Source of the DNA: an uncultured archaeon
Lineage (GTDB): Archaea > Nanobdellota > Nanobdellia > Woesearchaeales > CAIVOO01
DNA: 64,000 nucleotides
Assembly (NCBI GenBank): GCA_903904885.1
Contig: CAIVED010000012.1
Location: 34,130-98,129 of the forward strand
Direction of reading: 5' to 3'
Part shown: positions 1 through 29,054 of the stretch, one piece after another
How the letters are laid out: every line of letters begins with the position of its first letter
How positions within the stretch are numbered: the first letter of the stretch is position 1
Position numbers and translations under genes: made by a program
The notes under the pieces: model-generated
Told to the model about the DNA's origin: nothing
What the model saw: the letters and a program-made list of their open reading frames with translations, nothing else
Database searches by the model: none

Positions 1-1065
1 CTGCCTGAATGTTTCTTTCAGCAAATCAAAAAGTGTTATTTCACCGTACTGGGTTCCGAGAATTGTCGGTATTCCGAATCCCTCTCTTGTGACCGCAGGA
101 AGCCAGTTGGAATGGGGCAGGTTCAGTTCCCTTGTGTCTTCAATTGAACATACCCTTGCCTCAGGCGGGATAAACTGGGCAATTGCATTCAGGAACGTTG
201 TTTTTCCTGAAGCAGTTTCACCTACAAACATGAGGTTTGCCTTGTTTTCCACAGAAAGCCACATGAAAGCCAGCGCCTCTGCAGTTACTGTCCCGAATGA
301 AAGAAGATGTATGGGTGTCCATGGCTCCTTTGTGAATTTTCGGATTGTGAACGTAGGGCCCCTCGTGGTAACATCCTCTGTGTAGGTTGCGTTAACTCTT
401 GAGCCGTCAGGCAATGCGCCGTCAAGCAGAGGCCTTGCATAGGAAACATATCTTCCTGCTTTCTGCGACAATTTTTCAACAAAATTAACAAGCTCTTCCC
501 GCTGCCTGAAAATTACATTTGTCCTCATGTTTGCGTATTTCCTGTGGACAATGTAAATTGGATAGCCGTCTCCGTTGCATTCCACATCTTCTATGAAATA
601 ATCGCGCATCATCGGCTCCACCTGGTTTAATCCTATGGAATCCCGTATGACATAGTAAAGCAGTTTCTCATAGGTCTCCTTTGAAACCTTTGTGCCGAGC
701 TCTGTGAGAATTGACTGGACATTCTGCTCAAGATACCTAATCAGCATAGTTATGTTTGTTGCCCTTACATAGGAAATGTTTATCATCTCCTCAAGCCCTG
801 CCTTTACAAGGTCAAGCAGCTCCTGCTCAGCGGGGCTGACCACCGGCTCCTCAATGAAATAAACAAGGTCCTTGCTCTCCTCATCCCAGAAAATGTGCGC
901 AAATGCAAAGGGGGGTATCAGCGGATAGCGGACATTTATTTTTGTCTTGTCATCTGAAGCAGGAAGGGTTATCAGCTTTGGCCTTAGGTCAAGATAGAAT
1001 GCCTCATATTCATCTTTTTCGTCTTTTGGCTCTGCCTTTGGGGCAGGAACAGCAGAATTTGCCAT
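1..1065 (-). CDS. Type IV pilus/archaellum assembly ATPase (FlaI/PilB/TadA, VirB11 superfamily). Partial: the C-terminus runs off the window start.
   Basis: Manual minus-strand translation gives MANSAVPAPK...VGETASGKTTFLNAIAQF (Walker A) ...CSIEDTRELNL (Asp box). The ORF is missing from the track because it is truncated at the window edge. The start ATG at 1065 is tentative. Confidence 0.7.
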   Translation of the reverse strand, partial: MANSAVPAPKAEPKDEKDEYEAFYLDLRPKLITLPASDDKTKINVRYPLIPPFAFAHIFWDEESKDLVYFIEEPVVSPAEQELLDLVKAGLEEMINISYVRATNITMLIRYLEQNVQSILTELGTKVSKETYEKLLYYVIRDSIGLNQVEPMMRDYFIEDVECNGDGYPIYIVHRKYANMRTNVIFRQREELVNFVEKLSQKAGRYVSYARPLLDGALPDGSRVNATYTEDVTTRGPTFTIRKFTKEPWTPIHLLSFGTVTAEALAFMWLSVENKANLMFVGETASGKTTFLNAIAQFIPPEARVCSIEDTRELNLPHSNWLPAVTREGFGIPTILGTQYGEITLFDLLKETFRQ

Positions 1066-1299
1066 GGGAGGCTTCGGGACAGCGATTTCACCGGGATTTA
1101 CAGCTGCCTCACCCCCTGTTTTTGCCTCTTTCTTGCCTATGAACGGAATAGCCACCAAATCCACCTCTTTTTGGGTCTTTAAATGAATGTTTTATTTATT
1201 AAGGTTGCGGTTTAAAGCGCCTGTTTAATTAGCCGTTAAACTGGGCATAGTGCCTGTAGAAACTCCAGGAGAAAAGCCACCATGCGCAAGTAATAATGC

Positions 1300-3087
1300 C
1301 TATTTAATATACCCGCCTTTCTGCAGTCCCCAGAGTTTCTTGTAAGTGCCTTCCCGGGCAATAAGCTGGGAATGGGTTCCCTGCTGGACAATCTTGCCCT
1401 TTTCCAGGACAATTATCCGGTCAGCCTGCATAATTGTTGAAAGCCTGTGGGCGATTATTATGGATGTCCTGCCTTCCATCAATTTCTGGAGGTCCTTCTG
1501 TATCTCATGCTCGGTCTGCGAATCCAGCGATGATGTTGCCTCGTCAAGCACAAGGATTTTCCTGTTGGCAAGTATTGCCCTGGCTATTGAAACCCTCTGC
1601 TTTTCGCCGCCGGAAAGCCTTACGCCCCTCTCGCCGACAATTGTCTTTTCCTTTTGCGGGAAGCTATCTATAATCTTGTCAAGCTGGGCGAATTTTATTG
1701 CGCGCCATACTTCGCCCCTTTCAGCATCCGGCTTTGAAAATGCAACGTTGTTGTAGATGGTGTCATCAAAGAGCAGGCATTCCTGCGGGACAATTGCCAT
1801 TTCGCTTCTGACAGACTCCTGCCTGAAATCCTTTATGTTTTTGCCGTCGATAAGTATCTCCCCTGATTCCACATCATAGAACCTGTAAAGCAGCTTAACT
1901 ATTGTGGTCTTGCCAGAGCCAGAATGGCCCACAAGGGCGATTTTTTTGTTGCTGGGAATTTTAAGGCTAAGATTCCTGAATATGCTTCTCTTGCCGTACC
2001 TGAAGCTGACATTCCTCAGTTCCAGCTCGCCTGTTTTTATTTTCAAATCAGGTGCATTTGGAATGTCTTTTATCTCATTTTTCACCTTGGCGTACCTGAA
2101 AAGTGTTTCAAAGTCAGCCATTGATGCATAGAAATTCCTTATTCCGTTGACAAATCCGAAAAGGTTCCCCACAAGGGCTCCGTTTACGCTGTATATGAAA
2201 ACCAGGGTGCCGAGGGTTATCCTGCCTGCCATGAAATCCAGCACTGAAAAATAAACCAGCAAAACCACGCTTGAAGAAAGTATAAGCGCCTGGCCTGCGT
2301 CCATCCACCGGAAATAGTTCCAGAAAGTCAAAAGCTTCTCCTTGCTTATCTGGCTGAGTTTCTTGTACCTTGCCTTGACATTCTCCTCCTTGCCGAAATA
2401 TTTTATTGAGTCTATGTTTGTCAGCATGTCTGCAATGTTTGCCTTTTCAACATCCTCTGCATTGTTCTGCTCTATGCTCGGCTTTTCCTGGGCACGCTGG
2501 ATAATGAGGCTATAGCTAAGGAATACCGCGGCCATAATGCCCGTGATAAGCGCAGGAATCCAACTGAATGCCAGAAGCGAAAATATTACTATGAAAAACT
2601 GCAGAAGCATCGGCGCAGCGTTGAATATGAACACATCAGTCATCCTCTCCACCGCCCTGCCAATCCTTATGAGCCTTGAGATAATGCTTCCAGTCTTGTG
2701 GGTTGTGAAAAAACCATGGTCCAGGTAAATAAGATGGTCGAAAAAGCTCCTTTTCATGTCAAACATCATTTCTGTTTCAAGCTTGTTCACATAGGTAAGC
2801 GAGAGGAATTTCAGGGCTGCCCTGGAGAGCGCGGAAATTCCATAGAGGATTCCCACCAAAATCAGCGCAGAGGCCAAAGCCTCCATAGCGATTTTGCCTG
2901 CTGCAAAATCAGTGCCGCTGTCCACAATCCGCTTAAAAAGATACCTCTCAAATATGTAGCTGCCCTCAACCACAAGGATTATTGCCAGGAGTATTATGGC
3001 CAGCCACTTGTACTTCTTAAGAAAACTGAAGTACAATCTAAGGTTGTAGCCGAAATCTATTTTTCCGTCAATTGGTCTTGTTCCCAT
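1300..3087 (-). CDS. ABC transporter, fused permease/ATPase (type I exporter, MsbA-like)
   Basis: 595 aa. N-terminal TM region, Walker A GHSGSGKTT, signature LSGGEKQRVSIARAIL, Walker B ILVLDEATSSLD. Confidence 0.85.
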   Translation of the reverse strand: MGTRPIDGKIDFGYNLRLYFSFLKKYKWLAIILLAIILVVEGSYIFERYLFKRIVDSGTDFAAGKIAMEALASALILVGILYGISALSRAALKFLSLTYVNKLETEMMFDMKRSFFDHLIYLDHGFFTTHKTGSIISRLIRIGRAVERMTDVFIFNAAPMLLQFFIVIFSLLAFSWIPALITGIMAAVFLSYSLIIQRAQEKPSIEQNNAEDVEKANIADMLTNIDSIKYFGKEENVKARYKKLSQISKEKLLTFWNYFRWMDAGQALILSSSVVLLVYFSVLDFMAGRITLGTLVFIYSVNGALVGNLFGFVNGIRNFYASMADFETLFRYAKVKNEIKDIPNAPDLKIKTGELELRNVSFRYGKRSIFRNLSLKIPSNKKIALVGHSGSGKTTIVKLLYRFYDVESGEILIDGKNIKDFRQESVRSEMAIVPQECLLFDDTIYNNVAFSKPDAERGEVWRAIKFAQLDKIIDSFPQKEKTIVGERGVRLSGGEKQRVSIARAILANRKILVLDEATSSLDSQTEHEIQKDLQKLMEGRTSIIIAHRLSTIMQADRIIVLEKGKIVQQGTHSQLIAREGTYKKLWGLQKGGYIK

Positions 3088-3344
3088 TTCCGTAAATTTT
3101 CCGTAAGTTTTTTATACTCGTTTATATTATATATTCTAAAAATGCCAAATCCTTCGCTTATCGGACCTCCTCCCCAGAACCCAAAGGCTGTTGAAGATGC
3201 TCCTGAGCGCGAAGAGGACGAAGAATAGGCCTCTCTTGTTTCTAGCAACTTTTGGAATGTTTATAAATTTATGGTAGAGTGAAGCGAGATTCTGGACAAA
3301 GCCGTAGAGCAAGCTTTTTAAAGATTAAAATAACAATAACCCCC

Positions 3345-4198: not shown

Positions 4199-4336
4199 TT
4201 ACTAAATTGGTATCTGAGAATATAAGTACTATTATTACCATTTGACTTACCAAAATATTTATAAAGGAGGGTTATTTAATTAGTTAAACACGGGAATCAC
4301 GATAACATACTAAAAGTAATATTTCAATAAGGGTAT

Positions 4337-4959: not shown

Positions 4960-4968
4960 GTTTATAGC

Positions 4969-5159: not shown

Positions 5160-5190
5160 GTTAACAAAATAAAAGATAAAAAAGAAACAA

Positions 5191-9649: not shown

Positions 9650-10693
9650 GTGTGTGTTAATATGACAAAGGAAAAACAGCCAAAACATCAAGAGCAGGGC
9701 GATACGAGAAGGAATCTGCTAATCGGCGGCGGCGCCGCGGTTGTTGCAGGATTGGCATCACTATACATCTCAGGTAGGGCAAAAGCCCCTGATGAACAGT
9801 GGCCGTTTTTGCACAGGGAACAAATTCTCAAACACCCAAAAATGGAACAAATAGAGAAGGAATTTGTTCCTTTCGGACTGGAACAGGATATTTCATATCC
9901 CTGGGAAATAGAGGAGCTAAACAATATCCTGAGGACGCAAATTTCAGAAGAGATGGCGAGAAGAGGTTTTGACCCTTCAATTGAATATGTCATTGAGCCA
10001 AGTTGCAGGTACTGCGGGTTGCCTGATGAAGCAAAGGTTACAAAATCTTTGGCAGACTATTGCAGAAATGCTGCGGGTTTCATGCAGGCCCGTCTAAGAA
10101 TGGAAAAATTTAATCCGGAATTTACAATCCTAACTCCGGGTTCAGATTTTGAAAACGATTTTAATGGCCGGGTTTTTATTGGAAACAGCTATTGTTTCCT
10201 GAGAAAAATGGATGTAATCAATCCCGCTGATCCTGGCAAAAATTTTTCTGCATTCGCAAAGGAATGTTTGCAGGGTGGCATGAGCAGGGGAACGGTTGAT
10301 AAAGGAAATCGCGACTGGTGGTATGGTTTTGTGGCAGCAGGGGAGGGCGCATTGACAAGTGCATTCTCCGAAATCCTTCACAGGTCAACCATGGTTAAAT
10401 TTTATGAGCACATGCAATCCGCAGGTTTCGAGGCGGCCCAGGCAGATGAGGCGGTTGTTGAGGGCATTGCTTACATTCTTTCATCTGCTCTTGCAAAGGA
10501 ATTGAAAATTCCTGATGGAGCCGGCATTGTAAGGAAGGCAGTTTCAGATCTGCTAACAGATAAAATATGTGCAACCAGATATAAACATCTACCCAGTGCA
10601 GTAAACTGGATGAATAAAAACGGCATCCAGAATGCCTACGACTTGTACATGCAAGACCCTCAGAAGTTTATGGATGCGATTAAAAAATCATAA
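9650..10693 (+). CDS. TAT-signal secreted protein, paralog 1 of a tandem triplet (unknown family)
   Basis: Twin-arginine signal DTRRNLLIGGGAAVVAGLASL. Shares GSDFEND, GFVGNSYC, SPFSEL, EGIAYILS and C-terminal NGIQNAYDLYMQDPQKFMDAIKKS with the next two genes. Confidence 0.6.
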   Translation: MCVNMTKEKQPKHQEQGDTRRNLLIGGGAAVVAGLASLYISGRAKAPDEQWPFLHREQILKHPKMEQIEKEFVPFGLEQDISYPWEIEELNNILRTQISEEMARRGFDPSIEYVIEPSCRYCGLPDEAKVTKSLADYCRNAAGFMQARLRMEKFNPEFTILTPGSDFENDFNGRVFIGNSYCFLRKMDVINPADPGKNFSAFAKECLQGGMSRGTVDKGNRDWWYGFVAAGEGALTSAFSEILHRSTMVKFYEHMQSAGFEAAQADEAVVEGIAYILSSALAKELKIPDGAGIVRKAVSDLLTDKICATRYKHLPSAVNWMNKNGIQNAYDLYMQDPQKFMDAIKKS

Positions 10694-10705: not shown

Positions 10706-11725
10706 ATGACAAAGAAAAAACAGCAAAAAAAGGTTGAAACTCAAAAGCAAGATAGGAGAAATTTTCTTAAAGTTGCTGCAGCATCTCTTGTTCCGGTTTT
10801 TCTTAGATCTCAAAATTCTGATACTAACAAATGGGACTTTTTGAATGCAGAATCAAAAGCAGACAGCATAAAAGATGTTGAACAGGTTTATTCAGATGGA
10901 GTTCCTCTTGAGAGTGAAGGAGATGCGGCCTATAACTTCCAGGTTGCAGACATTCAGAGAAATATGGAATCTGAAGGAATTATGCAGGAAATGAGGAAAA
11001 AAGGCATAAATGCTACCATAAGGCTTACAAAACAGACTTTCGGAATTCCGGATGCCCGGTACGGAAAACAAATGGGAGCATATTGCAGGACTGCTGAAAG
11101 ATATATCAACCAAAAAATCAGGCTTATAACTCCAATAAGTTTAGACTGGGTTGTGCTGGCAAGCGGGGATAATTTTGAAAATGATGATACCAACAAAGGT
11201 TTTGTTGGAAACTGCTATTGCCAGCTATATCATGCAACAGCAGGAGAGCTGGGCAATCCCGCACGGTCTGTTGACAGGAAAGTCTTTTTGGCTAAAAATG
11301 GCGGGTTAACCAGCACCAGCACTGAAAAAGACAAGTTTATTTCCGGATTCGTGTTTATAGGGACAACTGCCTGCGCGCTAACAAGCCCCTTTTCAGAGCT
11401 TCTTGCCCTTCATTCAGAAGACCAGTTTAACGCCCATTCCGCTAAATCTGCTTCATCCATAGGAATGCAAACAAACGAAGCATGGCATGAAGGACTAGCG
11501 TTCATACTTTCTTACAAGCTTGCAGCAGAATTAGGCATTCCTGGAGGCCCCGAATATGTTATGAAAACTGTCAGGAATCTAGTGCAGTTGGGGAGAGAGT
11601 ATGAATATCTTGGAAACTCAATAAGATGGATGCAGAAAAATGGAATCCAGGCAGCCTATGACCTCTACATGAGAGATGACCCTCAGAAGTTTTTTGATGC
11701 GATAAAGAAATCCGGAATAAAATGA
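10706..11725 (+). CDS. TAT-signal secreted protein, paralog 2
   Basis: DRRNFLKVAAASLVP (RRxFLK). GDNFEND, GFVGNCYC, SPFSELL, WHEGLAFILS, NGIQAAYDLYMRDDPQKFFDAIKKS. Confidence 0.6.
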   Translation: MTKKKQQKKVETQKQDRRNFLKVAAASLVPVFLRSQNSDTNKWDFLNAESKADSIKDVEQVYSDGVPLESEGDAAYNFQVADIQRNMESEGIMQEMRKKGINATIRLTKQTFGIPDARYGKQMGAYCRTAERYINQKIRLITPISLDWVVLASGDNFENDDTNKGFVGNCYCQLYHATAGELGNPARSVDRKVFLAKNGGLTSTSTEKDKFISGFVFIGTTACALTSPFSELLALHSEDQFNAHSAKSASSIGMQTNEAWHEGLAFILSYKLAAELGIPGGPEYVMKTVRNLVQLGREYEYLGNSIRWMQKNGIQAAYDLYMRDDPQKFFDAIKKSGIK

Positions 11726-15201: not shown

Positions 15202-15222
15202 TTTGCCCCACTGCCTGTTAAA

Positions 15223-16894: not shown

Positions 16895-17956
16895 TTACAT
16901 TTTCCTGGTTTTTTCAAACAATGCCTTTTGCGCGGGAGTCATTTTTTTAACCTTGCCGGCATCAATCAAAACCACAGCCCACTCCCCATTTGGTTTTTGG
17001 TATGCCATGAAATTTTTCTCCTGGGTAGCGTCCGCTATAATGTAGCCTGCATCACCAACTGCATTAATCAGGTCATCCTGCGCAAACCTTATTTTGCCGT
17101 AGTCCACAGTTTTAGCAGTGCCAAGAGCCTCGTCCAGGGTTTTGCCCGGAATTTGCTCAGTAATCATGTAGGTGGGCGCAACCGCATAAACCTTGGGAAC
17201 TTCTAGGCCTAATTTCCCAAACTCGTCAAAAATTCGTGCTTGTTCAGCATAGGAGTTGAATATTGTCTTGCTAACTAAAGGGCTCTCCTTGGAAACCTTT
17301 ACGACAACATCCGTGGTGCTTTCTATCCCGTACTTTTTTGCCATGTCTTTGGGCACTGAAAAGGTGACGCTTTCTACGCCTTCACCCAAATAGTACTTGC
17401 TCGCACTTGCCCCGGTATCAACAGTGCTCACCCTGCCATTAGTCTTGACCATATCAAAGGTGCCCAGATCGGATATCGCCCGCGCCCTTTCCTCTGCAGA
17501 ACCCTTAAATAGCGAGGCTGCCCTTCCCCCGGTAACCTCATCAACGAGAAGTATCCTGTCGCCTCTTTTTAGAAATTCCTCCAGCTTTTTTGGATCTGCT
17601 CTTGCTGCTTCATATAATTTTTTAATCTCTGCTGAAGCAATCGCATCAGAGCCAAACATGTCGTTAAGGTAGCGGTAATATGCATCAGCAGTTCTTGCCG
17701 TAGGCGCTCTGATTCTGGGGGTTTCTCCAACAGCCATTATTTTTGCCGCAGGCAGCGAAGGATTCTGCACACGCTCAAAAGCAGCTTCAATGCTTGCAGC
17801 GAGTTGAAGGCATTCCTGAGAACTTGCACTAACCAGGGGAGTGCTTCCGGCAGCTCCGGTTATGCTTGCAACAGAACCCTGCTGAACAACCTGCGAAAGA
17901 AAAATGCCAAAAAGCGCCAAAAAAACAACAAAAACCAAAAACCCCTTTTTCATCAT
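16895..17956 (-). CDS. Secreted hypothetical protein. N-terminal domain is paralogous to 18642..20450.
   Basis: MMKKGFLVFVVFLALFGIFL signal (possible class III KKG|F). Shared GSVASITGAAGS...ECLQLAASIEAAFERVQNP module. Confidence 0.55.
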   Translation of the reverse strand: MMKKGFLVFVVFLALFGIFLSQVVQQGSVASITGAAGSTPLVSASSQECLQLAASIEAAFERVQNPSLPAAKIMAVGETPRIRAPTARTADAYYRYLNDMFGSDAIASAEIKKLYEAARADPKKLEEFLKRGDRILLVDEVTGGRAASLFKGSAEERARAISDLGTFDMVKTNGRVSTVDTGASASKYYLGEGVESVTFSVPKDMAKKYGIESTTDVVVKVSKESPLVSKTIFNSYAEQARIFDEFGKLGLEVPKVYAVAPTYMITEQIPGKTLDEALGTAKTVDYGKIRFAQDDLINAVGDAGYIIADATQEKNFMAYQKPNGEWAVVLIDAGKVKKMTPAQKALFEKTRKM

Positions 17957-18641: not shown

Positions 18642-20450
18642 TTATTTGGCAGCTTTTATCTTTGTGTTTACATCCTTCAAAAGTGTGTCAATGGCAGACT
18701 GGTCAACCTTTTTGTTGCTGGTCAATGCATTTACATAATTTTTGTCGTTTAATACTGACTTGACTTCTTGCCATGCTTTGTCATTATTTGAACTTGCATA
18801 GGTTCCCAGGGTTTTCATTATGCTCTGAGCCTGGTCTTTGGTTAGGTCATAGGAGCCCACAGTATTTTTTCCTGAGATGTACTTCCTCAGGCCGGCAATC
18901 CGGTCATTTTCATTGGCAACTGTATCAATCATGCTTGCAGATGTTACCGGTTTATATGTGGTCCCCATTGTTGCAGAAACCGTCCCCCGCCCAAGGGGCT
19001 GGTCAGTAACCTTATCGACAAGATTAACAGGGTGGGCATCTCCAACACTTTTGAAGCTTCCCCTTGTTATTTCCAAAATCTCGCCAAACTGTTTTGCATC
19101 AACTCCGCTGGCCATTATTTTAAACTCATCAGAGCCAGAGCCCTTTTCCATCCATATTTGAACTCCGGGGTGGGTATTCTCATATCCCTTAAGTTTTTGC
19201 GCAGCGTCCGCATAAAATGAATGGTAAACCTCATCAGCACTGCTTACTTTCAGATTCTTAAACAAATCCCTGGCATTGTCAATATCCCCGTCTGCCCTGA
19301 AATATGTTTTGCCGCTTCCGACTATTTCAGTTTGTTTAGCAAGGCTTGCCTGGTAATCATAGATTGCAATTGACGTTCCTTTAGCCGCATCATTAGCATT
19401 GCTCTCAAATCTGGCAGGCCTTTTTGCCATCTCATTAAGCATGTTCGCACGGTCCTCCACATTTTTCAGGAGAGCTGTGTTTGATGGGTCTTTCGAAAGC
19501 GCTGCCCTGGCATCATCCAGTTTTTTCTTCGCATCATCAACAAGGAACAGGCTGTCCGTCTGGGCTTCGGGAGGAATGAAGTTATGGTATTTATCCAAAA
19601 AGTTTGTTGCGTCTGTTGGGCTCATCCCGGCAGTCAACTGTTTGAAATCAAATGTCCCAGAACTTGTTTTCTGGTACTCTGCGGCAGCGCCTGCCTCCTG
19701 CAGCCCCTTGTAATAAAGATCCTTTGCATCAGTCCTGGCTATTCCCGCTTTGGGCGCTATTGTCGTTGTTCCCATTCTTAGGCTCCCGGTTATCCCTTCA
19801 TTAGCAAAAGGCGCCGGCAGTGACTTGGTGACATCTGATTGTATTTCTCCAATAGCTTTGCTCAGCTGTTCAGGGGTTATCCGATTGGATGTTACAATGA
19901 ATGAGCCAGAAGCTCCTCTTGAAACAATGGCATCCGGATCGAGCGCTGCCATCTTCTTTGTAATGGCATCGCTTGTTTTTTCTATCAGAACATTCCCTGA
20001 AAAATCCGCGGCCTCATGGCCTGCAAGGCTGTTTACAAATGTCAAATCCGCCAGCTCAAAGACAGCAATCGTTACCGGCTTCCCGTTGCCGCCCATAACC
20101 TGCTTGTAAATTGCATCAACAGAGCCCGAAACATATGTAGGCCTATTGGTCAAAGAGTCTACGCCTGAGTAAATTTCCTTTGAGGTTTTGCCTACAACGC
20201 TTTTTGACCCGGCGCCAGTGACTTCTCTTGCAGGATTCTGCACATCTTTAAAAGCAGTTTCAACACTTGCAGAGAACTGAAGGCATTCTGCCCCACCTCC
20301 AGCACCGCCCGCAGCAGCGCTTCCGGTTACACTAGCAACTGACCCGCTGCTTCTCGTCGCTGCAAAAATCATTCCGAGAACCAGCAGAAATGCCATGAAA
20401 AAAAGAATTTCAGACCTTGCCATCCGGTTTTTTATCATCTTCACCCGCAA
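18642..20450 (-). CDS. Large secreted hypothetical protein (602 aa)
   Basis: N-terminal hydrophobic signal. GSVASVTGSAAAGG...ECLQFSASVETAFKDVQNP is shared with 16895..17956. Confidence 0.55.
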   Translation of the reverse strand: MRVKMIKNRMARSEILFFMAFLLVLGMIFAATRSSGSVASVTGSAAAGGAGGGAECLQFSASVETAFKDVQNPAREVTGAGSKSVVGKTSKEIYSGVDSLTNRPTYVSGSVDAIYKQVMGGNGKPVTIAVFELADLTFVNSLAGHEAADFSGNVLIEKTSDAITKKMAALDPDAIVSRGASGSFIVTSNRITPEQLSKAIGEIQSDVTKSLPAPFANEGITGSLRMGTTTIAPKAGIARTDAKDLYYKGLQEAGAAAEYQKTSSGTFDFKQLTAGMSPTDATNFLDKYHNFIPPEAQTDSLFLVDDAKKKLDDARAALSKDPSNTALLKNVEDRANMLNEMAKRPARFESNANDAAKGTSIAIYDYQASLAKQTEIVGSGKTYFRADGDIDNARDLFKNLKVSSADEVYHSFYADAAQKLKGYENTHPGVQIWMEKGSGSDEFKIMASGVDAKQFGEILEITRGSFKSVGDAHPVNLVDKVTDQPLGRGTVSATMGTTYKPVTSASMIDTVANENDRIAGLRKYISGKNTVGSYDLTKDQAQSIMKTLGTYASSNNDKAWQEVKSVLNDKNYVNALTSNKKVDQSAIDTLLKDVNTKIKAAK

Positions 20451-23400
20451 GGAACATGGCTCCAGTCCTTAACAACATTTGGATCCTTCTCCTTAAGCTG
20501 GCTGAGTGTTGCAGCATCTATCTCTATTGTCCCCTTATCGGCATCATACTTTATGCTTGGGTTCTTTTCCACAAGTGCTTTCATATCACCTTTAACCCTT
20601 TTCGCCTCGGCAAACTCGTCTGCTATCGCTTTATTGGAGCCCTGCAAAACTGTTTCTGCATCCTTCTTTGCCTTAGTCTCTGCGTCCTTTTGCAAAGCCT
20701 CGATAGACTGAACAAGGTTAGAATCCTGAATTGTAATCTTTTTGCTCAATGAACCCTCTGCAAGTTCTTTGATGCTGGTTTGTAATGGTTTCCCTGCGGA
20801 TTCTGCTGCAATCTGGCCTGTTTTCTGGTCAACTGACTTAATGGTATATGTTACTCCATCTTTGATGAATGTTCTGCCTTCCCAAGAAGCTTTTGTTAAA
20901 ATGCTCTTTGCCGCTGGAAGGTTTCCTATGCAGGTGCCTATAAACAGGCACTCAGCCTGCGATGCCGTAAACTCAAAAAGCTTGGCGCCGATTCCTGTGT
21001 AGGCCCTGGTCAATAAATTCTGGCCGGCGGTTAGCGCCGCACTCTCAAAGCCAATCCTGCTCACTCCTGTCAATGCTGCTGAGGCAAGATTCTCTGCGCC
21101 AAAACCTACCGCAATCTGTATGGCTGCGCCTGCGGCATATTCCCCTGATGTTAGCTTTAACAGCTCAGCCCCCTGGACAAAGGGCATGTTAAAAAAGGTG
21201 GTTTTTGTCGGCATAGCTTCGGGCATATTAGGCTTTACGAGTGCCTCTACCACATCCCAGAATTGTGGGCCAACGTTTGTAATCACATTTTGTGGGTCCT
21301 CTCCTTTCCCAAGGCGCCGGAGTGCCTGGAATGCAGGATTAGCAACCCCGTTGGTCACTAGTTTACTTCCAAGCATGTCCAGAGTTTGCTGATCCTTTGT
21401 TGCCGGGAAAAGCTCTGCCACCAGTTCTCTCCTCCTCGTTGGGTCAGACAATGCTGATTGTATATCATCTATGCTCATACCACGTTTTGTATACAAGTTC
21501 ATGAATACCCCCATTGCCCAGGCTTGGCTGTTAAGGTTACTGTTCATCCAGGTTATAAGATCGGTCCTCGTTTGGAAATTTATTAAATTCGTGCCTGCTG
21601 TAGTAAACCCTGCAGCTTGACCGTAAGTTTCTTCAAATTTTTGCCGATTCTCAGTAATCTGGTTCTTTGCGTTTTGCTGTATCATTGACAATGATGCTAT
21701 TGTCACCTGCTTTTTTATATCCTGGGACTCCCCATAGAACGGGGAGTCCGGCTTAACCTTGGCAAAATAGCTTATCATCTGAGCATAAGATTCATCAGCG
21801 AATAAAACTTTATTTTCAGGCCTTAGCAAGTTATATCTGGCGAGTTCCAGTTTTCCGGCAGCGTAATTGTTGAAGTCCTGGTCGTTGAATTTTTTCATTT
21901 TTTGCAGTATGGTGTCTGCTTTTCCAAAATATTCACCCTTTTGGTTGTTAACTATGTAACTATTCAGCAAATCAGCGGCAATTTTAGTGTCCGGCTTTGC
22001 GCTTGCCGCAACAAAAAGGTCAAAATATGCCTGCTTGGCGTTAACTGATGCGCTGTCCTTGGAATTCTGGTCGTTATAGTTTGCATAGAGCTTGATTAAA
22101 TCTTCTGCAGCTTTGCAGTTGTTCGGAGTTTTGCAATTTTCCAGAATTTGCTGAGCATCAAATAACTTTTGGTATACCTTTGCATCCTCTGTCCCTGCTG
22201 CGTTTTTCAGAAGCTTCGCTTTTGTATCAGGGCTCAGTGATCTAACCGCGCTTAATAAACCATCACGGCTGTTAGAGCTAAGGCCCATAATTGCAGTCTT
22301 CTGCTGCGAGCTTACACTTGAAGCATCCCCTCCGAGAAGCTGTCTCATCCGGTCAGGCCCCAAAATATTTACATATTTGCCCTGGGAGCCTTCCAGGCCT
22401 TTTATCTGAGTTGCAACGGAGTTCTCAAGAAGCAACCCCTGTGAATTCAGCCCGAGATAAACAGTCCCCTTCACATCGCTCAAAAGAAAATCCTTGCCTC
22501 CGCCGGGAACTATGTTCCATCCTTTGTTTGCTGCATCCCCGAATGCGCCGAGGGTTTCTCCTGAAAGTTTTACGTTTAATTTATCGCCTGTTTTCGAGAG
22601 ATCCATGGAAACTGCCTTGTCTTTATTTGTATCTTTGTTCCCGTTGAAGAACTTTGCATCCACATCCAGATGCATGAACTTTTTGGAATTTCCAGGCCCG
22701 TCCACGGTCATTGCATTGGCAGTGGGTGTTGAAACAAGGGACATTTTTATAAGTTGAGGATTTTCCCCATTGCCGTATACAGTTGTGTCCGCCTTCAGCT
22801 CACGGACTCCCTTGTCATTGTATGTTTCAAACTTGAACCTCCCGAGGGAAGTTGTAAGAAAAACATTTTGCCTGTTGGGGTCCGGTCCCCTGTAAAAGCT
22901 TGCCTCGGCCCCTGCGCTCTGGTAGGCGTATGCGAGGGCGGGGCTGCTGATTTTACCCTGGGATTTCAAAGACATGGAATTGTCAGCCTTGCCTGCCTTA
23001 AAGCTGACATAGCCATTTGAAGTTATAATGTAATCGTTTCCCATGGTCTTGTACCATATTTCTCCCCCGAAATTAGGGGGTTTTGGCGGAGGGTTTGCCT
23101 TTGCCGCCTCGGCTCTTTTATCAATCTCCGCAGGGGTAAGCGGAGTGGTTTTCCCGCCATCTGTATGGCCCGCATCTCCCGGAAGATACTCTGAATGAAC
23201 AACTACATTATATCCTGCTGTTGATATGGCAAGGTCCTTGCCGTTTGGGTTGAACTGCACAAAACTGCTCTGCTTGCCATTCAAAAAGAAAAGGCTGGTG
23301 TCATCACCTTTCTTTTCAAAACTTCCGTCATAAAGCCTGAATCTTCCGGTGTCATAAACTTTCGCACCCTGTGAACGGATTGTGTTTCCCTCATTCTCAA

Positions 23401-24055
23401 TGGATAATTTGCCCGTTGCATCGAACTGATAGTTCCCACCCCTGCCGGAATAGCTTCCCTTCATTCCTTCCACAACAATCCCGTCTTTTGTAAAGACTAT
23501 TTTCGACTTCGACTTGTCTCCGGCGGGAACCTCCAGCAAAGCCCTTTCAGTGGTCTTGGTATTTGTCAAGGAAAGCTTGCCGTCCTTGTCCTTGCCTATG
23601 TCGTTCTTATTGCCGGTCTTCCCTCCAACCAGAACGCCATTGACAAGAAATGCATCGTTAGGCAAGGCTTTTACGTCATCGCCCGTCTTGAAATTCTGCA
23701 GCGCAATTCGCGTATTGCCGTTTCTAAGGTAGGTAACGCCGCCAGCCGACTCTACGCTTATTGGGGAGGGGCTGCTGGTTCCTGTGCTGCTGATCAGGTC
23801 CCTTATGTTAATTGCTGCGCCATTCGCTACCTTGCTAAAATAAGTTTCTGCTCGTTGGGGATTGGCTCTTATGTTATTGGCAGAAGCAACGAAACTCTCA
23901 TCTGATTGGACAGTGGTAGGTTCAGGCTGATGAAGCCCTCCGGAACTGGGAACCGCGGTCTCCGGAGGATAGAGTGGATGCCCCTGCGCATAAACAAAAT
24001 GAACAGCTACGACTAAAATAATTGCCAGCAAAATGATTTTTTTATTCAATATCAT
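20441..24055 (-). CDS. Giant secreted/surface protein (1204 aa), unknown function
   Basis: Signal MILNKKIILLAIILVVAVHFVYAQG. Long low-complexity, beta-rich body. Translationally coupled to the upstream pilin-like gene (4-nt overlap). Confidence 0.6.
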   Translation of the reverse strand: MILNKKIILLAIILVVAVHFVYAQGHPLYPPETAVPSSGGLHQPEPTTVQSDESFVASANNIRANPQRAETYFSKVANGAAINIRDLISSTGTSSPSPISVESAGGVTYLRNGNTRIALQNFKTGDDVKALPNDAFLVNGVLVGGKTGNKNDIGKDKDGKLSLTNTKTTERALLEVPAGDKSKSKIVFTKDGIVVEGMKGSYSGRGGNYQFDATGKLSIENEGNTIRSQGAKVYDTGRFRLYDGSFEKKGDDTSLFFLNGKQSSFVQFNPNGKDLAISTAGYNVVVHSEYLPGDAGHTDGGKTTPLTPAEIDKRAEAAKANPPPKPPNFGGEIWYKTMGNDYIITSNGYVSFKAGKADNSMSLKSQGKISSPALAYAYQSAGAEASFYRGPDPNRQNVFLTTSLGRFKFETYNDKGVRELKADTTVYGNGENPQLIKMSLVSTPTANAMTVDGPGNSKKFMHLDVDAKFFNGNKDTNKDKAVSMDLSKTGDKLNVKLSGETLGAFGDAANKGWNIVPGGGKDFLLSDVKGTVYLGLNSQGLLLENSVATQIKGLEGSQGKYVNILGPDRMRQLLGGDASSVSSQQKTAIMGLSSNSRDGLLSAVRSLSPDTKAKLLKNAAGTEDAKVYQKLFDAQQILENCKTPNNCKAAEDLIKLYANYNDQNSKDSASVNAKQAYFDLFVAASAKPDTKIAADLLNSYIVNNQKGEYFGKADTILQKMKKFNDQDFNNYAAGKLELARYNLLRPENKVLFADESYAQMISYFAKVKPDSPFYGESQDIKKQVTIASLSMIQQNAKNQITENRQKFEETYGQAAGFTTAGTNLINFQTRTDLITWMNSNLNSQAWAMGVFMNLYTKRGMSIDDIQSALSDPTRRRELVAELFPATKDQQTLDMLGSKLVTNGVANPAFQALRRLGKGEDPQNVITNVGPQFWDVVEALVKPNMPEAMPTKTTFFNMPFVQGAELLKLTSGEYAAGAAIQIAVGFGAENLASAALTGVSRIGFESAALTAGQNLLTRAYTGIGAKLFEFTASQAECLFIGTCIGNLPAAKSILTKASWEGRTFIKDGVTYTIKSVDQKTGQIAAESAGKPLQTSIKELAEGSLSKKITIQDSNLVQSIEALQKDAETKAKKDAETVLQGSNKAIADEFAEAKRVKGDMKALVEKNPSIKYDADKGTIEIDAATLSQLKEKDPNVVKDWSHVPCG

Positions 24056-25092
24056 GATGGCTCCTCTATGTTTACCGGTGTCAAGCCTGCCACAACATTA
24101 AACACAACCACCTGCTCTGCCTTTCCTCCCTTGCCGTCATCTGCAGTTACGGTTACCCTGTACTCCCCGGGTGCAGGGGCAGTTGTGCTTATCTCCCCGG
24201 TGTCGGGATTGATTGGAAATTCCGGCGAATCTGTGGAAAAAGTTATATTGTCCCCGTCGGGGTCTGTTGCAACTGCCTTGGCATAAACGCTGCTCCCTGA
24301 AACAAATGCAAGGCTCTCCATATCCTCCATAACCGGAGCGCTGTTGGTTGACAGTTCGTAGGCGAACAGGAACATGTAGGTCCTGTTGTCAATGACCGTG
24401 GAGTTGTCAACGAGCGCAAAAATAAGCGTGTCCCCTGAAACCGGCAGGAGGTTGACATTAAGGCTCGGGAAAAAAAGGTCTGTAATGGTTATTCCCCCCC
24501 GGCTGTTGTCAATTATTTGAGAGGCAACATCATGATAGTATCCCAATTTTATCGGGACAGTGGAGTAAAAGCTTTTGAGGCTGCTGCTTTTTCCCAGGCT
24601 TCTCACCTCAATAGGATAGTTAACAGCAAACTGGACCTTGTCCTGGAATATTGTCGCATTTACAGTAATGTTTCCCTCGCTTATTTCAGTGCCCTCTTTT
24701 TTGAAATCCTCAAATCCTGCAGTGCACAGGGGAATAAACTCTTTCAGGTAATCTGATATTTCAGCCTGCATAGCCTCAATTGTCGGCAGGGTTGTGCTAT
24801 TTCCCGAGAATCCGTAGCCTATTGTAAAAATATCGCTGTCATAGGAATTTGCCGGCGGGTTTATGTAGCCGCCCTGCTCGCCAAGCAAATATATCCCAGG
24901 CACGGCTGTTTTCTGTATGCATTGCTCGACAAAGATTTGCAGCGGCCTAACATCCGCAGAAACCACTTCTCTCCCAGCGGTCGTTGTTGCCTGCTGGACC
25001 TGCATCTGCCTGGTGTAGATAAATACGCCAATTACAGCAATAAGAACCAGCCCTATTACAACAAATGTTGTTATCTGCCCTCTTTTTCCCAT
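24052..25092 (-). CDS. Type IV pilin-like protein (class III signal peptide) with a C-terminal Ig/cadherin-like domain
   Basis: MGKRGQ|ITTFVVIGLVLIAVIGVFIY fits the K/R-G cleavage context of archaeal prepilin peptidases. C-terminal ATDPDGDNITF...VTADDGKGG is an Ig-like repeat. Confidence 0.55.
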   Translation of the reverse strand: MGKRGQITTFVVIGLVLIAVIGVFIYTRQMQVQQATTTAGREVVSADVRPLQIFVEQCIQKTAVPGIYLLGEQGGYINPPANSYDSDIFTIGYGFSGNSTTLPTIEAMQAEISDYLKEFIPLCTAGFEDFKKEGTEISEGNITVNATIFQDKVQFAVNYPIEVRSLGKSSSLKSFYSTVPIKLGYYHDVASQIIDNSRGGITITDLFFPSLNVNLLPVSGDTLIFALVDNSTVIDNRTYMFLFAYELSTNSAPVMEDMESLAFVSGSSVYAKAVATDPDGDNITFSTDSPEFPINPDTGEISTTAPAPGEYRVTVTADDGKGGKAEQVVVFNVVAGLTPVNIEEPS

Positions 25093-25189
25093 GGTTAGGA
25101 ATAGTTTTTGTTTTGATTATTTAAACGTTTTCCCCGAGGATATTTGATGCTTATTTTGCCATATTGTAAATAAATATGGATAGTCACTT

Positions 25190-25221
25190 CATAGTGACAA
25201 AAATAGAAAGGTTTAAATAGT
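25190..25221 (+). promoter_or_regulatory. Extended promoter motif copy 4
   Basis: TCATAGTGACAAAAATAGAAAGGTTTAAATAGTGG, upstream of 25242. Preceded by a GTCAC..GTGAC palindrome. Confidence 0.5.
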
Positions 25222-25241
25222 GGGGGGCCATAAAGCAGCCT

Positions 25242-26264
25242 ATGGACAGGAGAGAATGGCTTAGGACAGGAGTAGTCGCAACTGGCGTGAGTTTGGCGCT
25301 TTCAGTTGGATTAGGCCAGGAGTATAATAATCATGATTCTTCCAATGAATCAGGCAGACCTAAACAAATCGCAGAAGACCCAAATTTTAGATATTTGGTC
25401 AGGGAGCTTTTGCCGGCCCTTATAATTGCAAGCTATGAGAAAGACATCCACAGGAGCAAGGAGAATGAAAGTCTGTACATCGAACATGAGCATCCGTTCC
25501 TAATGTCCAAAAATCATGCAGTGTTGGATGAGAGATACAAACATCTGCTGGATAAATTAAGCAAGGTTGAAAGCAAAACCGGGATTTTTTTAAGCGATGC
25601 CGATAATGCCGCAAAAGCCTTGAGAAAAAGAGGCTATGCTTATCGCTGCGAACATTCTGTGCTTGATGATAAAATAAATACCTTCACTTTTGGAAACATA
25701 ACAGCGGATAAAGCGATTGTTAATCAGGACTGGGGGAAGAATGAAAAAAGAAATGTTGTGTACTTCCGGGATATAGTCCCTATTTTTGAGAAATATGTAA
25801 ATTTCAGGAATAGCGGCGGAATGAGAGACACAGAAGATAACTTGCTGTACATAAATCAAACTGCGCTTGAGGAGTATGCCGCAAGAATATTTAACAGTGA
25901 CCTAAAAGAGGCCAGAAAAAATCCGGCTGAGTTTGCAAATCATATGCTTCTCCGGGAATTCGAAGGGGACTCAATAGAACAGATTTTTGGCAAGATACAG
26001 GAATCTGTGACCCACCATGAAATGAATCATGGGGGGGAGGTTGAGGCACAGCTTTCCGAGCTTGAATACGGCACAACATTCCTTTCACTGGGCACGCTTT
26101 ACAAATCATTAAACAATAATAACAGTGACCAGATAAAACATGAAGCAGCCAAGATAATCTTCGGCAGGTTCAAGCAGAAAGGCTACAATCCGGAAGACCT
26201 GTTGTCAATGAGCCGGGAGAAAATAAAACGCATTGTTCTGGCAATTCATGATTCTGCAAATTAA
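25242..26264 (+). CDS. TAT-signal secreted protein with an HExxH motif (possible zinc metallopeptidase)
   Basis: RREWLRTGVVATGVSLALS and HHEMNHGGE. Confidence 0.45.
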   Translation: MDRREWLRTGVVATGVSLALSVGLGQEYNNHDSSNESGRPKQIAEDPNFRYLVRELLPALIIASYEKDIHRSKENESLYIEHEHPFLMSKNHAVLDERYKHLLDKLSKVESKTGIFLSDADNAAKALRKRGYAYRCEHSVLDDKINTFTFGNITADKAIVNQDWGKNEKRNVVYFRDIVPIFEKYVNFRNSGGMRDTEDNLLYINQTALEEYAARIFNSDLKEARKNPAEFANHMLLREFEGDSIEQIFGKIQESVTHHEMNHGGEVEAQLSELEYGTTFLSLGTLYKSLNNNNSDQIKHEAAKIIFGRFKQKGYNPEDLLSMSREKIKRIVLAIHDSAN

Positions 26265-28228
26265 CATTTAGCACAGTTCTTATCACTTACATCAGGTTCG
26301 CTGTAAGCAGCACCACAGCCTGCAGCGTTGCCGCTCGCAAAATAGAGCTTAACTACACCACAGGTAGTAGCAGGATGGTATATCACCCTGCAGCATCTCT
26401 CTCTGTGCGGAGTTGAAGGAGAATCGTCCCCATATACTTTATATCTCGCCCCCTGATTATCTGATGGTGCGATAGTAAACTGTTCTGCAGCCTTGCGCTC
26501 ATCAATTCTTTTCTGAAGATCGTCTGACTGTCTTTTTGCTTCAGCCTCTTGTTTTGCCTGTTCCTTGAAATAACTGCTTGGCGCAAGAGCCCCCGCAACC
26601 TTATTCCCATTCATAAAGTTAGAAGATGCCTGCATTAAATTCTCATTGGTACAGGCATCTTTTCGTCTCGTATCGCTCCATCCAGCATACATAATATCAC
26701 ACACTGGCTGGTCAGGATTGGGAGGCGCTAATCCCTTATACTGGTAATTTTGATAATAAGCTCCGGTAGGCTTCTGATAGTAATCAGCTAGCAAAGCATT
26801 TTGTACAGCAGTCCTCACTTCTTCAACAGTTTTGTCGTTATTTGTTGCATCTGTAATTTTCAGGAAGAATGCATTTTTTGGATTATCCCCATATTGAACA
26901 TAAGCCCAGTTTCCAAAAAGCTTAAGTTTGACGTCCATAGCTTTTTTGCCTGTTGAGGGATCAGAAACAGTCAAACCTTTGATACCTTTATCGGGCTGCT
27001 TAACATCTGTAACCTGTGTTAATTTTGTCACTCCTGTGCATTCTCTTGGAGGACCTTCCCCCGCCGTAGCCTGCCCCGTAATTGGATTAACACTGCAACT
27101 ACCCCCTTCTTTATTACACTGGCAGTCCCCATTAACACAGCTATAGCTTGAAAAAGGCTCGCCTGCTACAGAAAGATTAAGTGATTTTATTGAGTTGAGC
27201 ATTATGTTGTCTACAGCGTCAATTCCATTCTTGGAAGCAATAATTGTATTTACTGACTCTCCTATTTTCTCATTTATTACTATCGGAGCGCCTGTATCTT
27301 TGTCCACATTAAGTTTCAAGTTGTCATAGGGCCCTAAATAGTTTCCTCCAGCATCCTTTGTTGCCGAATAGCTTGCGCTTATGAGCGCTGCCTGGGCGCC
27401 GTCATTTGAAATTGACAAATCCTTGCCTGTTATGTCAACGCAATTCGTAGAAACCTTGCAGCCGCTTTTGTCAAATGAGAATGAGAATGAGTCTGTGCCG
27501 ACAACACCAAAGTCAGAATTATACTTGCTGTTGACATGTATGCTGCCTTCAACCTTGAATGTTCCGTCATTTTGGGGCGTTATTTTTCCGCCGGTTAAAT
27601 CTATTGTTTTGCCATGGCCATCATTAAGCTTTCCTTGAGATATTGAACCGGAAGAGTCTATCACAACCGGCTTGCCCGTTGAATCAGAAGTGTAGTTTGT
27701 CTTCTTGTCCGGCGATAAAATCAAAAGATTTCCATCGCTGTCAACCTTGAATGTGTACCCCGCCTTAGCCATATTGGCAAGCCCCTCTGTTGTAAACGTA
27801 TCGCCGTTTGCTGTGGTGAATGTGCCATCGGCATTGCGCCTAGCCATTCCATTATCCGCAACAGTTATTTGGATAGCTCCGCTGCTCTTGGTCTGTAAAT
27901 AAACAGTTGCTGCCTTGCCGTCCTTAAGCACTGATGGGTCACGTGCAGCAGCAGTTTCATAGGCTGCAGGATTAGTGCCTGCAATAGCCGGGTCTGCTTT
28001 GATTGCTGCCTTGTATGCATCAATGTTTTGCGTTAAATCATAATCCGGATGATTTTGGAGATATTGCGCATACCCCTGAGGATTATCCCGGGCATAGGCA
28101 ACCTGGTCTTGAGGGTTCAGTTCATTAAATTGCTGATCTTGGGCATAATTAATCTTTGTATTTAATATTAATATAGAGGATACTAAGATAACAAGCGCCA
28201 TTAACCCAAAAACAATACTTTTCTTCAT
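26261..28228 (-). CDS. Large secreted protein (655 aa), Cys-rich C-terminus
   Basis: Signal MKKSIVFGLMALVILVSSILIL. G/T/S/N-rich beta-type composition. Confidence 0.55.
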   Translation of the reverse strand: MKKSIVFGLMALVILVSSILILNTKINYAQDQQFNELNPQDQVAYARDNPQGYAQYLQNHPDYDLTQNIDAYKAAIKADPAIAGTNPAAYETAAARDPSVLKDGKAATVYLQTKSSGAIQITVADNGMARRNADGTFTTANGDTFTTEGLANMAKAGYTFKVDSDGNLLILSPDKKTNYTSDSTGKPVVIDSSGSISQGKLNDGHGKTIDLTGGKITPQNDGTFKVEGSIHVNSKYNSDFGVVGTDSFSFSFDKSGCKVSTNCVDITGKDLSISNDGAQAALISASYSATKDAGGNYLGPYDNLKLNVDKDTGAPIVINEKIGESVNTIIASKNGIDAVDNIMLNSIKSLNLSVAGEPFSSYSCVNGDCQCNKEGGSCSVNPITGQATAGEGPPRECTGVTKLTQVTDVKQPDKGIKGLTVSDPSTGKKAMDVKLKLFGNWAYVQYGDNPKNAFFLKITDATNNDKTVEEVRTAVQNALLADYYQKPTGAYYQNYQYKGLAPPNPDQPVCDIMYAGWSDTRRKDACTNENLMQASSNFMNGNKVAGALAPSSYFKEQAKQEAEAKRQSDDLQKRIDERKAAEQFTIAPSDNQGARYKVYGDDSPSTPHRERCCRVIYHPATTCGVVKLYFASGNAAGCGAAYSEPDVSDKNCAKC

Positions 28229-28274
28229 GTTCTCAAACTTTTTATTATCTACTGTTATTTATATTTTACTACTC

Positions 28275-29054
28275 TCAAATCCAGGCATATTTAAGCGCGA
28301 ATGAATATACATAAGGCTGGCCGTTTATGATTGTGTTCTCATCAACCTGGTCAACTACAACATTCCCGCTGCCAAAATAGCCTGCGTATGATTTGATGCC
28401 ATTTTGATAGGATATGTCCAGGAGGCTTCCTGACCTGAAGGAGAACAATGCTTCGGATTGCTTGTCAAGATACTCGTTAGAAGCATTTATCATCAATGCT
28501 AAAGGAACATTAACCTCTGCAGAGAATTTTTGCATTGAGCTTTTGGAATTATCTTTTGCTATGCCTATGGGATAGTCAACAGTGAACAGGACTTTTGATG
28601 GCAATATTAATGCGGTTGCAGAAACATTGCCAAATTCAAAGCTATAACCCTCATTCTGGAATGAACTCAGATTGCCGACGCAATCAGAAAGGCGCCGGTT
28701 CATGTAGGTAGAAAGCGAGGATTGAACATAATCAATGCTTGTCCTGTAAAGTGTGATATTATTTTGCTGTGATGGATCAGGGTATAGATAATAAGGAACA
28801 TCATAGAAACCTACTCTTATGTATTTATCAGGCAAATAATCCCCGCCTTGTGCGCTAACGTCAACAACAGCATACTCTGCAGTTTTCGCAACACACTGGT
28901 CAACGAATGTCTGTATAGGCACAACATCCGGAGGAACAGCTCTCTCTAAACTGGCTTTTGTAGTCACCCCGGTCATGTAAATAAAAAACGCGACTACAGC
29001 AAGTACAACAATCCCAAGAATGATGAATGTGGTTATCTGCCCTCTTTTCCGCAT
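28275..29054 (-). CDS. Type IV pilin-like protein (class III signal peptide), paralog of 24052..25092
   Basis: MRKRGQ|ITTFIILGIVVLAVVAFFIY. Confidence 0.55.
   Translation of the reverse strand: MRKRGQITTFIILGIVVLAVVAFFIYMTGVTTKASLERAVPPDVVPIQTFVDQCVAKTAEYAVVDVSAQGGDYLPDKYIRVGFYDVPYYLYPDPSQQNNITLYRTSIDYVQSSLSTYMNRRLSDCVGNLSSFQNEGYSFEFGNVSATALILPSKVLFTVDYPIGIAKDNSKSSMQKFSAEVNVPLALMINASNEYLDKQSEALFSFRSGSLLDISYQNGIKSYAGYFGSGNVVVDQVDENTIINGQPYVYSFALKYAWI

Follow-up and report, generated by a model that had tools for sequence, protein, structure and literature searches.

In bacterial type IVa pili, small minor pilins with class III (prepilin-type) signals are encoded beside the tip adhesin PilY1/PilC, a Sec-exported, anchorless protein of about 1,000 amino acids (aa) or more (the fimU-pilVWXY1E genes), and several alternative clusters may occur per genome. 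Large adhesin-like proteins adjoining pilin genes are also a known theme of archaeal type IV filament loci (PMC4858521), and the Epd-like 'system 1', reported in methanogens and DPANN archaea, is recognised by its two platform genes (bioRxiv 10.64898/2026.04.22.720090). The Epd pilins of M. maripaludis have the sites KGQI, KGQV and RAQI, and their peptidase EppA needs Gln at position +1 (PMC4371748). Other systems extend the use of the class III signal beyond ordinary pilins. In the Sulfolobus bindosome, sugar-binding PibD substrates provide a precedent for the prepilin route placing functional proteins at the surface, and the modular pilins PilB and PilC of Streptococcus sanguinis bear functional modules grafted onto an N-terminal class III module. 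Here we describe a two-gene cassette found twice in a 64,000-nucleotide (nt) stretch of contig CAIVED010000012.1 (positions 34,130 to 98,129, assembly GCA_903904885.1) from an uncultured archaeon of the Woesearchaeales. This whole stretch is hereafter the window, and coordinates refer to it unless another locus is named. The first gene of the cassette encodes a protein with a class III-type signal, which we call the adaptor, and the second a very large protein with a Sec-type signal, called the giant or partner.

The cassette is widespread yet unannotated in relatives. The adaptor family, its N-terminal motif, the conserved and co-varying pairing, the fused forms and the presence of filament machinery are established by the observations reported below. 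As with the minor pilins and PilY1, a small class III-signal protein is encoded beside a large, Sec-exported and anchorless one, several alternative modules may share a genome, and in two of the sampled loci (L026 and L023; loci are given by such numbers throughout) four more small class III-signal proteins are encoded behind the pair. Unlike in that system, the giants lack PilY1, DUF2341, vWA or any Pfam domain, there is just one adaptor, of about 250 aa and without a pilin fold, encoded mostly in stand-alone two-gene units, and the archaeal cell has one membrane. The Epd pilus shares with the window the site form [KR][GA]↓Q[IVL] (the arrow marks the putative cleavage site) and an ATPase with two platform genes, and its system 1 has been reported in DPANN archaea (bioRxiv 10.64898/2026.04.22.720090). 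It differs in that the adaptors have Phe instead of Glu at +5, do not match PF04021 and, in profile searches, have a globular domain unrelated to known Epd pilins, while the peptidase of the window is a 285-aa FlaK-like A24 enzyme. The bindosome proteins share the class III signal, the hydrophobic helix, the linker and a non-pilin globular domain, but the domain of the adaptors is not of the substrate-binding protein fold, a giant partner is typical and no Bas-like genes were seen. The modular pilins of S. sanguinis resemble the longer adaptors in bearing added modules behind the N-terminal one, but theirs is a true pilin fold incorporated in the filament, whereas the adaptor model does not resemble a pilin.

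Two adaptor–giant modules in the window

Both modules lie on the minus strand. The first consists of adaptor 1 (259 aa, 28275-29054) and partner 1 (655 aa, 26261-28228). Adaptor 1, which begins with MRKRGQITTFIILG, is built from the signal MRKRG↓QITTF, a hydrophobic helix of about 22 aa and, behind a short linker, a globular domain of about 215 aa that is conserved; the protein matches the family profile with an E-value of 1.3e-83. The second module consists of adaptor 2 (346 aa, 24052-25092) and partner 2 (1204 aa, 20441-24055). Adaptor 2 begins with MGKRGQITTFVVIG and has the same kind of N-terminal signal and domain as adaptor 1, to which a C-terminal immunoglobulin-like (Ig-like) domain is added (aa 250-331, 24100-24345, minus strand; Pfam Big_9 E 1.8e-7, He_PIG 9.8e-6, PKD 8.5e-5). 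A preliminary description of the window had regarded the two KRGQITTF proteins as paralogues and had assigned the Ig-like domain to one of them. Both statements are borne out, the proteins being 29% identical over about 250 aa (E 3e-27), and all the genes it listed were found where it had placed them. Orthologues of adaptor 2 with 44-50% identity are encoded in L001, L002 and L005.

Partners 1 and 2 are encoded directly downstream of their adaptors and possess Sec-type signal peptides; the preliminary description had already taken them for secreted. Partner 1 has 15 Cys and no C-terminal anchor, and is a sequence orphan without a match in Pfam, NCBIfam or the PDB. Partner 2 combines a beta-rich N-terminal half with a helical C-terminal half and has an invariant Cys near its C-terminus; it has no Pfam or PDB annotation, and its homologues sit behind orthologous adaptors in L001, L002, L005 and L006. 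The possibility that the two giants are themselves paralogues was rejected, the 655-aa and 1204-aa proteins being non-homologous. Translational coupling had been proposed for both pairs. The ATGA overlap of the 346/1204 pair supports it; it is unsupported for the 259/655 pair because the genes are separated by an AT-rich spacer of 46 nt with a TATA-like element, AAATATAAATA.

Conservation of the pairing

The pairing was sampled in the window and in 28 independent DPANN loci obtained by scanning for the N-terminal peptide pattern, with one genome per species and without use of the downstream content. Open reading frames were called in the 28 loci and family members were marked with a hidden Markov model. 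Where the record title names a lineage, the loci come from Woesearchaeota, Nanoarchaeota or Nanobdellota metagenome-assembled genomes; the others are 13 third-party annotation records titled 'uncultured Methanosarcinales', which we suspect to be mislabels, one titled 'uncultured archaeon' and one 'archaeon'.

A giant of 524 to more than 3,324 aa is encoded directly downstream and on the same strand for 24 of the 32 complete family members, the window included, a count that comprises partner homologues cut by a contig end. The junction is a 4-nt overlap in 13 cases. Genes of at least 500 aa represent 17% of all genes in the sampled loci, which gives a binomial P of about 1e-12 and excludes chance adjacency of adaptor and giant. 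The comparative check put forward in the preliminary description, namely the conservation of a KRGQITxF gene with a giant downstream gene in Woesearchaeota and Nanoarchaeota genomes, is thereby positive. Exceptions include L016 and L024, with the giant upstream, and L017, with a fusion. Two modules each are present in the window, L001, L005, L013 and L016. In L026, a giant, an adaptor and another giant precede four small proteins with [KR]G↓Q/I/V signals, all junctions overlapping or abutting, and the same gene set is found nearby in L023. The gene arrangement of a PilY1-type system, with a large adhesin-like gene beside class III-signal genes, is seen in the 24 of 32 pairings and in L026 and L023, while a PilY1-type adhesin domain is absent.

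The closest relative, L005, preserves the synteny of the window: two HIT genes, a 251-aa adaptor with a 744-aa partner, an opposite-strand gene with a twin-arginine (RR) signal, then a 330-aa adaptor, a 1216-aa partner and a 367-aa protein. BLAST finds no similarity between the 744-aa partner of L005 and the syntenic 655-aa partner of the window. The partners evolve or are replaced very fast.

Properties of the giants

Every partner has an N-terminal Sec-like hydrophobic segment and none a C-terminal transmembrane (TM) anchor; the giants therefore need something to hold them. Many are very Cys-rich, with 30-66 Cys, and BLAST divides them into at least eight unrelated groups. In eight giants taken from other loci, no Pfam domain exceeded the threshold, one giving a sub-threshold Ig-like match, and the PilY1 beta-propeller, DUF2341 and vWA domains were absent in Pfam searches from these eight and from the window giants. 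More generally, Pfam and NCBIfam returned essentially nothing for the giants, the 602-aa and 353-aa window proteins described below, the eight other giants and ten neighbours, and PDB sequence searches with the four large window proteins gave nothing significant. Matches of the 1204-aa protein to the 'Pizza' designed propellers were rejected, no single stretch passing alone.

Two groups of giants have distinctive features. The 1204-aa protein and its L001 and L005 orthologues end in V-x-C-[PG] (20441-20452 in the window), with an invariant Cys 2-3 residues from the C-terminus, and have in common a Gly/Ala-rich hydrophobic stretch around aa 960-1050. The CCEK giants, encoded in L023 (10768-14331), L026 (6620-9952 and 10756-14373) and L032 (2856-5966 and 6788-10660), contain 62-66 Cys and a CCEK motif right behind the signal peptide; in L026 and L032 they occur on both sides of the adaptor.

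Co-variation and fusions

Across the sampled loci, the subtype of the adaptor co-varies with the family of its partner. Ig-tailed adaptors of 330-358 aa accompany giants of the 1204 type (window, L001, L002, L005, L006), adaptors of about 250 aa accompany the Cys-rich CCEK giants (L023, L026, L032), and adaptors of about 630-670 aa, which have in common an extension of some 400 aa, accompany giants of 1,472-1,920 aa (in L011 and L022, contig ends cut the partners). Family members of 330-1529 aa bear C-terminal extensions that are Ig-like or homologous to giants.

Two proteins unite both components in one chain. These fusions, of 1100 aa in L017 and 1193 aa in L019, join the adaptor domain to three segments collinear with the giants of L023, L026 and L032, and the one in L017 has no downstream partner. 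Homology to these giants begins at about their residue 300 (E 1e-24 to 1e-36); nothing in the fusions corresponds to the preceding 300 or so residues of the free giants. Such an absence would be expected if covalent linkage had made a docking part superfluous, and the N-terminal 300 residues of the giants are thus a putative docking part.

The adaptor family and its N-terminal signal

An exhaustive search with a profile of the N-terminal domain (about 245 aa) retrieved 8,768 representatives, each a cluster at 50% identity, at E<=1e-3; of these, 1,490 reach E<=1e-30. Nearly all matches span the full domain and begin at residue 1-10. Word-based searches found just a handful of these relatives. 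The family has no model in Pfam or NCBIfam, its few source-named members are called 'hypothetical protein', and no description of it was found in the open-access literature searched.

The logo of 156 members shows Lys at -3 (79%), Lys or Arg at -2 (94%), Gly (73%), Ala (19%) or Ser (7%) at -1, Gln at +1 (98%), [IVL] at +2, Thr (80%) or Ser (12%) at +3, Phe at +5 (94%, with Tyr at 3%) and Gly at +9 (82%). The median leader is 5 aa long, and the consensus reads K-[KR]-[GAS]↓Q-[IVL]-T-x-F-I-I-[IL]-G, hydrophobic to about +22 and then followed by Y-[LIF]-[RK]. The anatomy is that of a class III signal, with a basic leader, a small residue at -1 (Gly, Ala or Ser in 99%) and a hydrophobic segment from +2 to +22, and both window proteins conform to it. 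Gln at +1, as in EppA-type substrates, occurs in 98%. The predicted cleavage site has the form of that of the Epd pilins, and the signal is of the Gln+1 class III type.

Machinery for type IV filaments

The window and its surroundings encode the components of a type IV filament: an ATPase, two T2SSF platform proteins, an A24 peptidase and pilins. The ATPase, of the FlaI/T2SSE family, was correctly recognized in the preliminary description, as was the peptidase. Its N-terminal 355 aa, with the Walker A motif GETASGKTT, are encoded at 1-1065 (minus strand), and the gene extends beyond the window; other assemblies of the same genome region give a full length of 566 aa and place behind it a gene of 70 aa and then two T2SSF/TadC-like platform genes. 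The peptidase (285 aa, 15223-16080, plus strand) is of the FlaK/PibD type (Pfam Peptidase_A24 E 3e-17, NCBIfam FlaK_Arch E 2e-9) and contains both catalytic Asp motifs, DFRTREVPDW and GGGDAKML. It is the candidate processing enzyme for the adaptors.

A pilin cluster of six small genes, four or five of which have class III-type N-termini, lies at 35553-38515 (plus strand). Two of its products (36829-37350 and 36008-36493) match the archaellin/pilin N-terminal model TIGR02537, with 30.4 and 20.5 bits (cutoff 20), and serve as a positive control for the curated N-terminal models. The cluster is preceded by a gene for a beta-helix protein of 1618 aa (30700-35556, plus strand; Pfam Beta_helix and NosD, NCBIfam para_beta_helix), whose stop overlaps the first pilin-cluster gene by 4 nt. 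A giant and pilin-like genes are here paired for a third time, in reversed order. An orthologue of the 1618-aa protein is encoded in L001 with synteny kept; its start, MGASKG↓VRMGAVAL, contains a possible class III site, and the start of the window protein (SRRVRMEVVAVV) is without that Gly.

Proposed mechanism and alternative explanations

The most likely role of the two-gene cassette is the surface placement of the large partner. Judging from sequence, we lean, if by a modest degree, towards a mechanism in which the adaptor holds or presents its cognate anchorless giant at the cell surface or on a filament. The adaptor would be made with a class III signal, in which Gln+1 and a hydrophobic helix some 22 residues long come after a short basic leader ending in [KR][GAS], and the leader would be removed by the A24 peptidase encoded at 15223-16080. 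The helix would then either stay in the membrane or join the core of a type IV filament of the Epd/Tad kind, which the FlaI-type ATPase and the two TadC-like platform proteins, all encoded at the edge of the window, would assemble. The globular domain of about 215 aa would bind the cognate giant, encoded immediately downstream and exported by the Sec route without an anchor of its own. In this way the rapidly diverging giant would stay on the cell surface or be displayed from it, and the most plausible purpose would be to attach the cell to a host or a substrate. What we infer in this scheme are the cleavage of the adaptor, its binding to the partner, and its location, function and incorporation in a pilus.

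Several results weigh against this mechanism. At +5, the adaptors have Phe where EppA and bacterial substrates have Glu. The curated N-terminal models TIGR02537, PF07790, PF04021 and PF13400 are not matched above threshold by the adaptors: PF13400 (Tad) reaches 15-18 bits (cutoff 22.3), PF04021 (Class_IIIsignal) gives E-values of 1.7-9.7, and TIGR02537 and PF07790 give no hit. The AlphaFold2 model of adaptor 1 is confident (pLDDT 94.5, pTM 0.85; alignment of 82 sequences) and comprises a helix (4-34), a lower-confidence linker (35-41), a second helix (42-68) and three alpha-plus-antiparallel-beta units. Foldseek comparison with the PDB found no pilin, archaellin, pseudopilin or other neighbour (best E 0.01, TM<=0.25), neither this model nor a shallower one (pLDDT 77.5) giving a hit at E<=0.001, and a search of PDB sequences with the family profile was also empty. 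The linker between helix and globular domain is of low confidence and variable in length across the family, whereas helix alpha1 of pilins is continuous; the continuous N-terminal helix packing on a beta-sheet and the likeness to solved pilins or archaellins, which define the type IV pilin fold, are not seen. With a confident model lacking any PDB match, the adaptor domain is therefore not demonstrably a pilin; it is predicted to have a new fold of its own. The overall design of the adaptor resembles the binding proteins of the Sulfolobus bindosome more closely than a filament subunit. 'Pilin-like', the term of the preliminary description, suits the class III-type signal peptide and suits neither the curated pilin N-terminal models nor the fold. 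Finally, BLAST searches of the 28 loci for the ATPase, peptidase and pilins found this machinery only in the two closest relatives, and most loci are without an ATPase or peptidase within 10 kb in these searches, which used BLAST only.

The same features would suit an adaptor acting outside any filament, as a membrane-tethered helper for maturation or export of the giant (a dedicated chaperone, a release factor, or an aid to disulphide formation or glycosylation), its conserved N-terminus serving membrane targeting or recognition by another factor. A fold unrelated to pilins, a flexible linker behind the N-terminal helix and modules standing mostly alone, far from type IV pilus genes, are all compatible with such a role, as are the 30-66 Cys of many partners and the two near-invariant Cys of the adaptor. 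We nevertheless judge it unlikely. The fusion of the two proteins is easier to reconcile with a stoichiometric structural partner than with a catalytic helper, the motif K-[KR]-[GAS]↓Q is an exact class III site (PMC4371748), and in L026 and L023 the pair adjoins four other proteins with class III signals.

The pairs could also be two-component surface-layer (S-layer) or cell-wall units, in which a membrane stalk carries a canopy, as do SlaB and SlaA in Sulfolobales. A small membrane-anchored protein co-transcribed with a large, secreted and anchorless protein, in many DPANN genomes, recalls that arrangement. SlaB possesses a Sec signal and a C-terminal TM, whereas the anchor of the adaptor is N-terminal and has the class III motif. 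Moreover, the window, L001, L005, L013 and L016 each hold several modules that are non-homologous, partners are unrecognisable between close relatives, which is atypical of a lattice protein, and a separate candidate S-layer-type gene, judged from its N-terminus only, adjoins the cluster in L023 and L026. With an N-terminal anchor and at least two unrelated modules per genome, the pairs do not have the properties of SlaA/SlaB, and we consider an S-layer quite improbable.

In a last alternative, the N-terminus would simply be an uncleaved Sec signal anchor of the ordinary kind, and its proximity to large genes would mean nothing. The preliminary description had named such a signal anchor as a refutation of its view, and only the sub-threshold scores of the curated class III and pilin models favour it. 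It is hardly credible because the motif, of the [KR][GAS]↓Q class III form, is far too conserved (Q+1 98% and F+5 94% in the 156-member logo of a family that spans thousands of diverged sequences), and the pairing (P of about 1e-12), the co-variation and the fusions speak against it too.

Presentation or anchoring of the giants by the adaptor, to which we now return, was already the interpretation of the preliminary description, where class III-processed subunits were thought to anchor or present large surface proteins. Comparative genomics supports it substantially: the pairing, the co-variation, the fusions, the motif and the anchorless giants are in its favour, while the pilin and class III models and the pilin fold are not.

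Neighbouring genes

Partner 2 is followed on the minus strand by a third gene of the operon (598-602 aa, 18642-20438), after a gap of 2 nt if ATG 20438 is the start. Its product is N-terminally anchored and contains the module GSVASxTG...ECLQ...AFxxVQNP, also found at the N-terminus of a 353-aa protein (16895-17956, minus strand). The preliminary description had noted this module in 16895-17956 and 18642-20450; it is indeed common to the two proteins, though over about 67 aa only (40% identity, E 4e-12). In L005, the third gene (14600-15703) is a positional counterpart of the 602-aa gene, undetected by BLAST, with a similar N-terminal module, SAITG...C...VFDRVRTQ. The recurring features of the module are a TM, S-x-[IV]-T-G, a Cys and A-F-x-[RD]-V-Q-N-P, and the third gene may encode an additional part of modules of the 346/1204 type. 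Residues 238-334 of the 353-aa protein give a weak, sub-threshold match to Bud32/RIO-type kinases (E 0.011), which would be odd beside an export signal.

Between the two modules, 25242-26264 (plus strand) encodes a protein of 340 aa that has a twin-arginine-like signal and contains HEMNH, an HExxH-like motif. An RR-signal protein is encoded at the same position in L005 (8915-9919, minus strand), BLAST finding no similarity between the two, and the 340-aa protein is an uncertain member of the system. Three tandem paralogues of about 340 aa (9650-10693, 10706-11725 and 11722-12732, plus strand) also start with twin-arginine-like sequences, RRNLLIGGGAAV, RRNFLKVAAA and RRTALLGIGA. They are 28% identical (E 3e-36), have a conserved C-terminal NGIQxxYDLYM and belong to no Pfam family.

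Directly upstream of the adaptor 1 gene, a 50-aa CxxC...CxxC zinc ribbon (DUF5679) is encoded at 29118-29270 (minus strand); the same small gene also stands before adaptor genes in L002 and L004 and, in L001, upstream of the cluster of modules. Modules with adaptors of about 630-740 aa adjoin, in L011, L013, L016, L027 and L028, a gene for a polytopic membrane protein of about 250-280 aa without a Pfam family (8924-9694 in L016, for example), which is absent from the window and is a possible third component of these modules.

The archaeal nature of the window is apparent from the marker genes for archaeal elongation factor 2 (EF-2), adenylate kinase and nucleoside diphosphate kinase. The nearest named relatives of its EF-2, at 70-76% identity, all belong to Candidatus Woesearchaeota or Nanoarchaeota, which places the source among the DPANN archaea of Woesearchaeota type. 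A tRNA gene of 119 nt (39233-39351, plus strand) was found by an Rfam match and missed by ARAGORN, and presumably contains an intron.

Significance

DPANN archaea are obligate or near-obligate episymbionts, and to our knowledge the molecules that mediate their attachment and host specificity are almost unknown. Two hypothetical genes of the window now become representatives of a defined system whose adaptor family counts thousands of members and is marked by a near-invariant processing-type motif and a confidently predicted new fold. The giants are unrecognisable between close relatives, a behaviour expected of host-interaction determinants, and pili-like appendages have been seen at the contacts between DPANN cells and their hosts (PMC7906910).

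Going further, the family and its giants could constitute the principal modular host-recognition apparatus of DPANN archaea of the Woesearchaeota/Nanoarchaeota type. The processed, new-fold adaptor would load onto or prime an Epd-like filament, and interchangeable, hyper-variable giants would set which host is bound or penetrated. We put this forward as a tentative and rather doubtful extension of the mechanism. Within it, giants of the 1204-aa type, with their Gly/Ala-rich hydrophobic segment and C-terminal Cys, might act on the host membrane.

The cassettes provide concrete candidates for the attachment factors of DPANN archaea, and may represent an archaeal counterpart of the minor pilin–PilY1 complex. 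The N-terminal motif followed by a giant gene also offers a searchable marker for host-range determinants in metagenomes.

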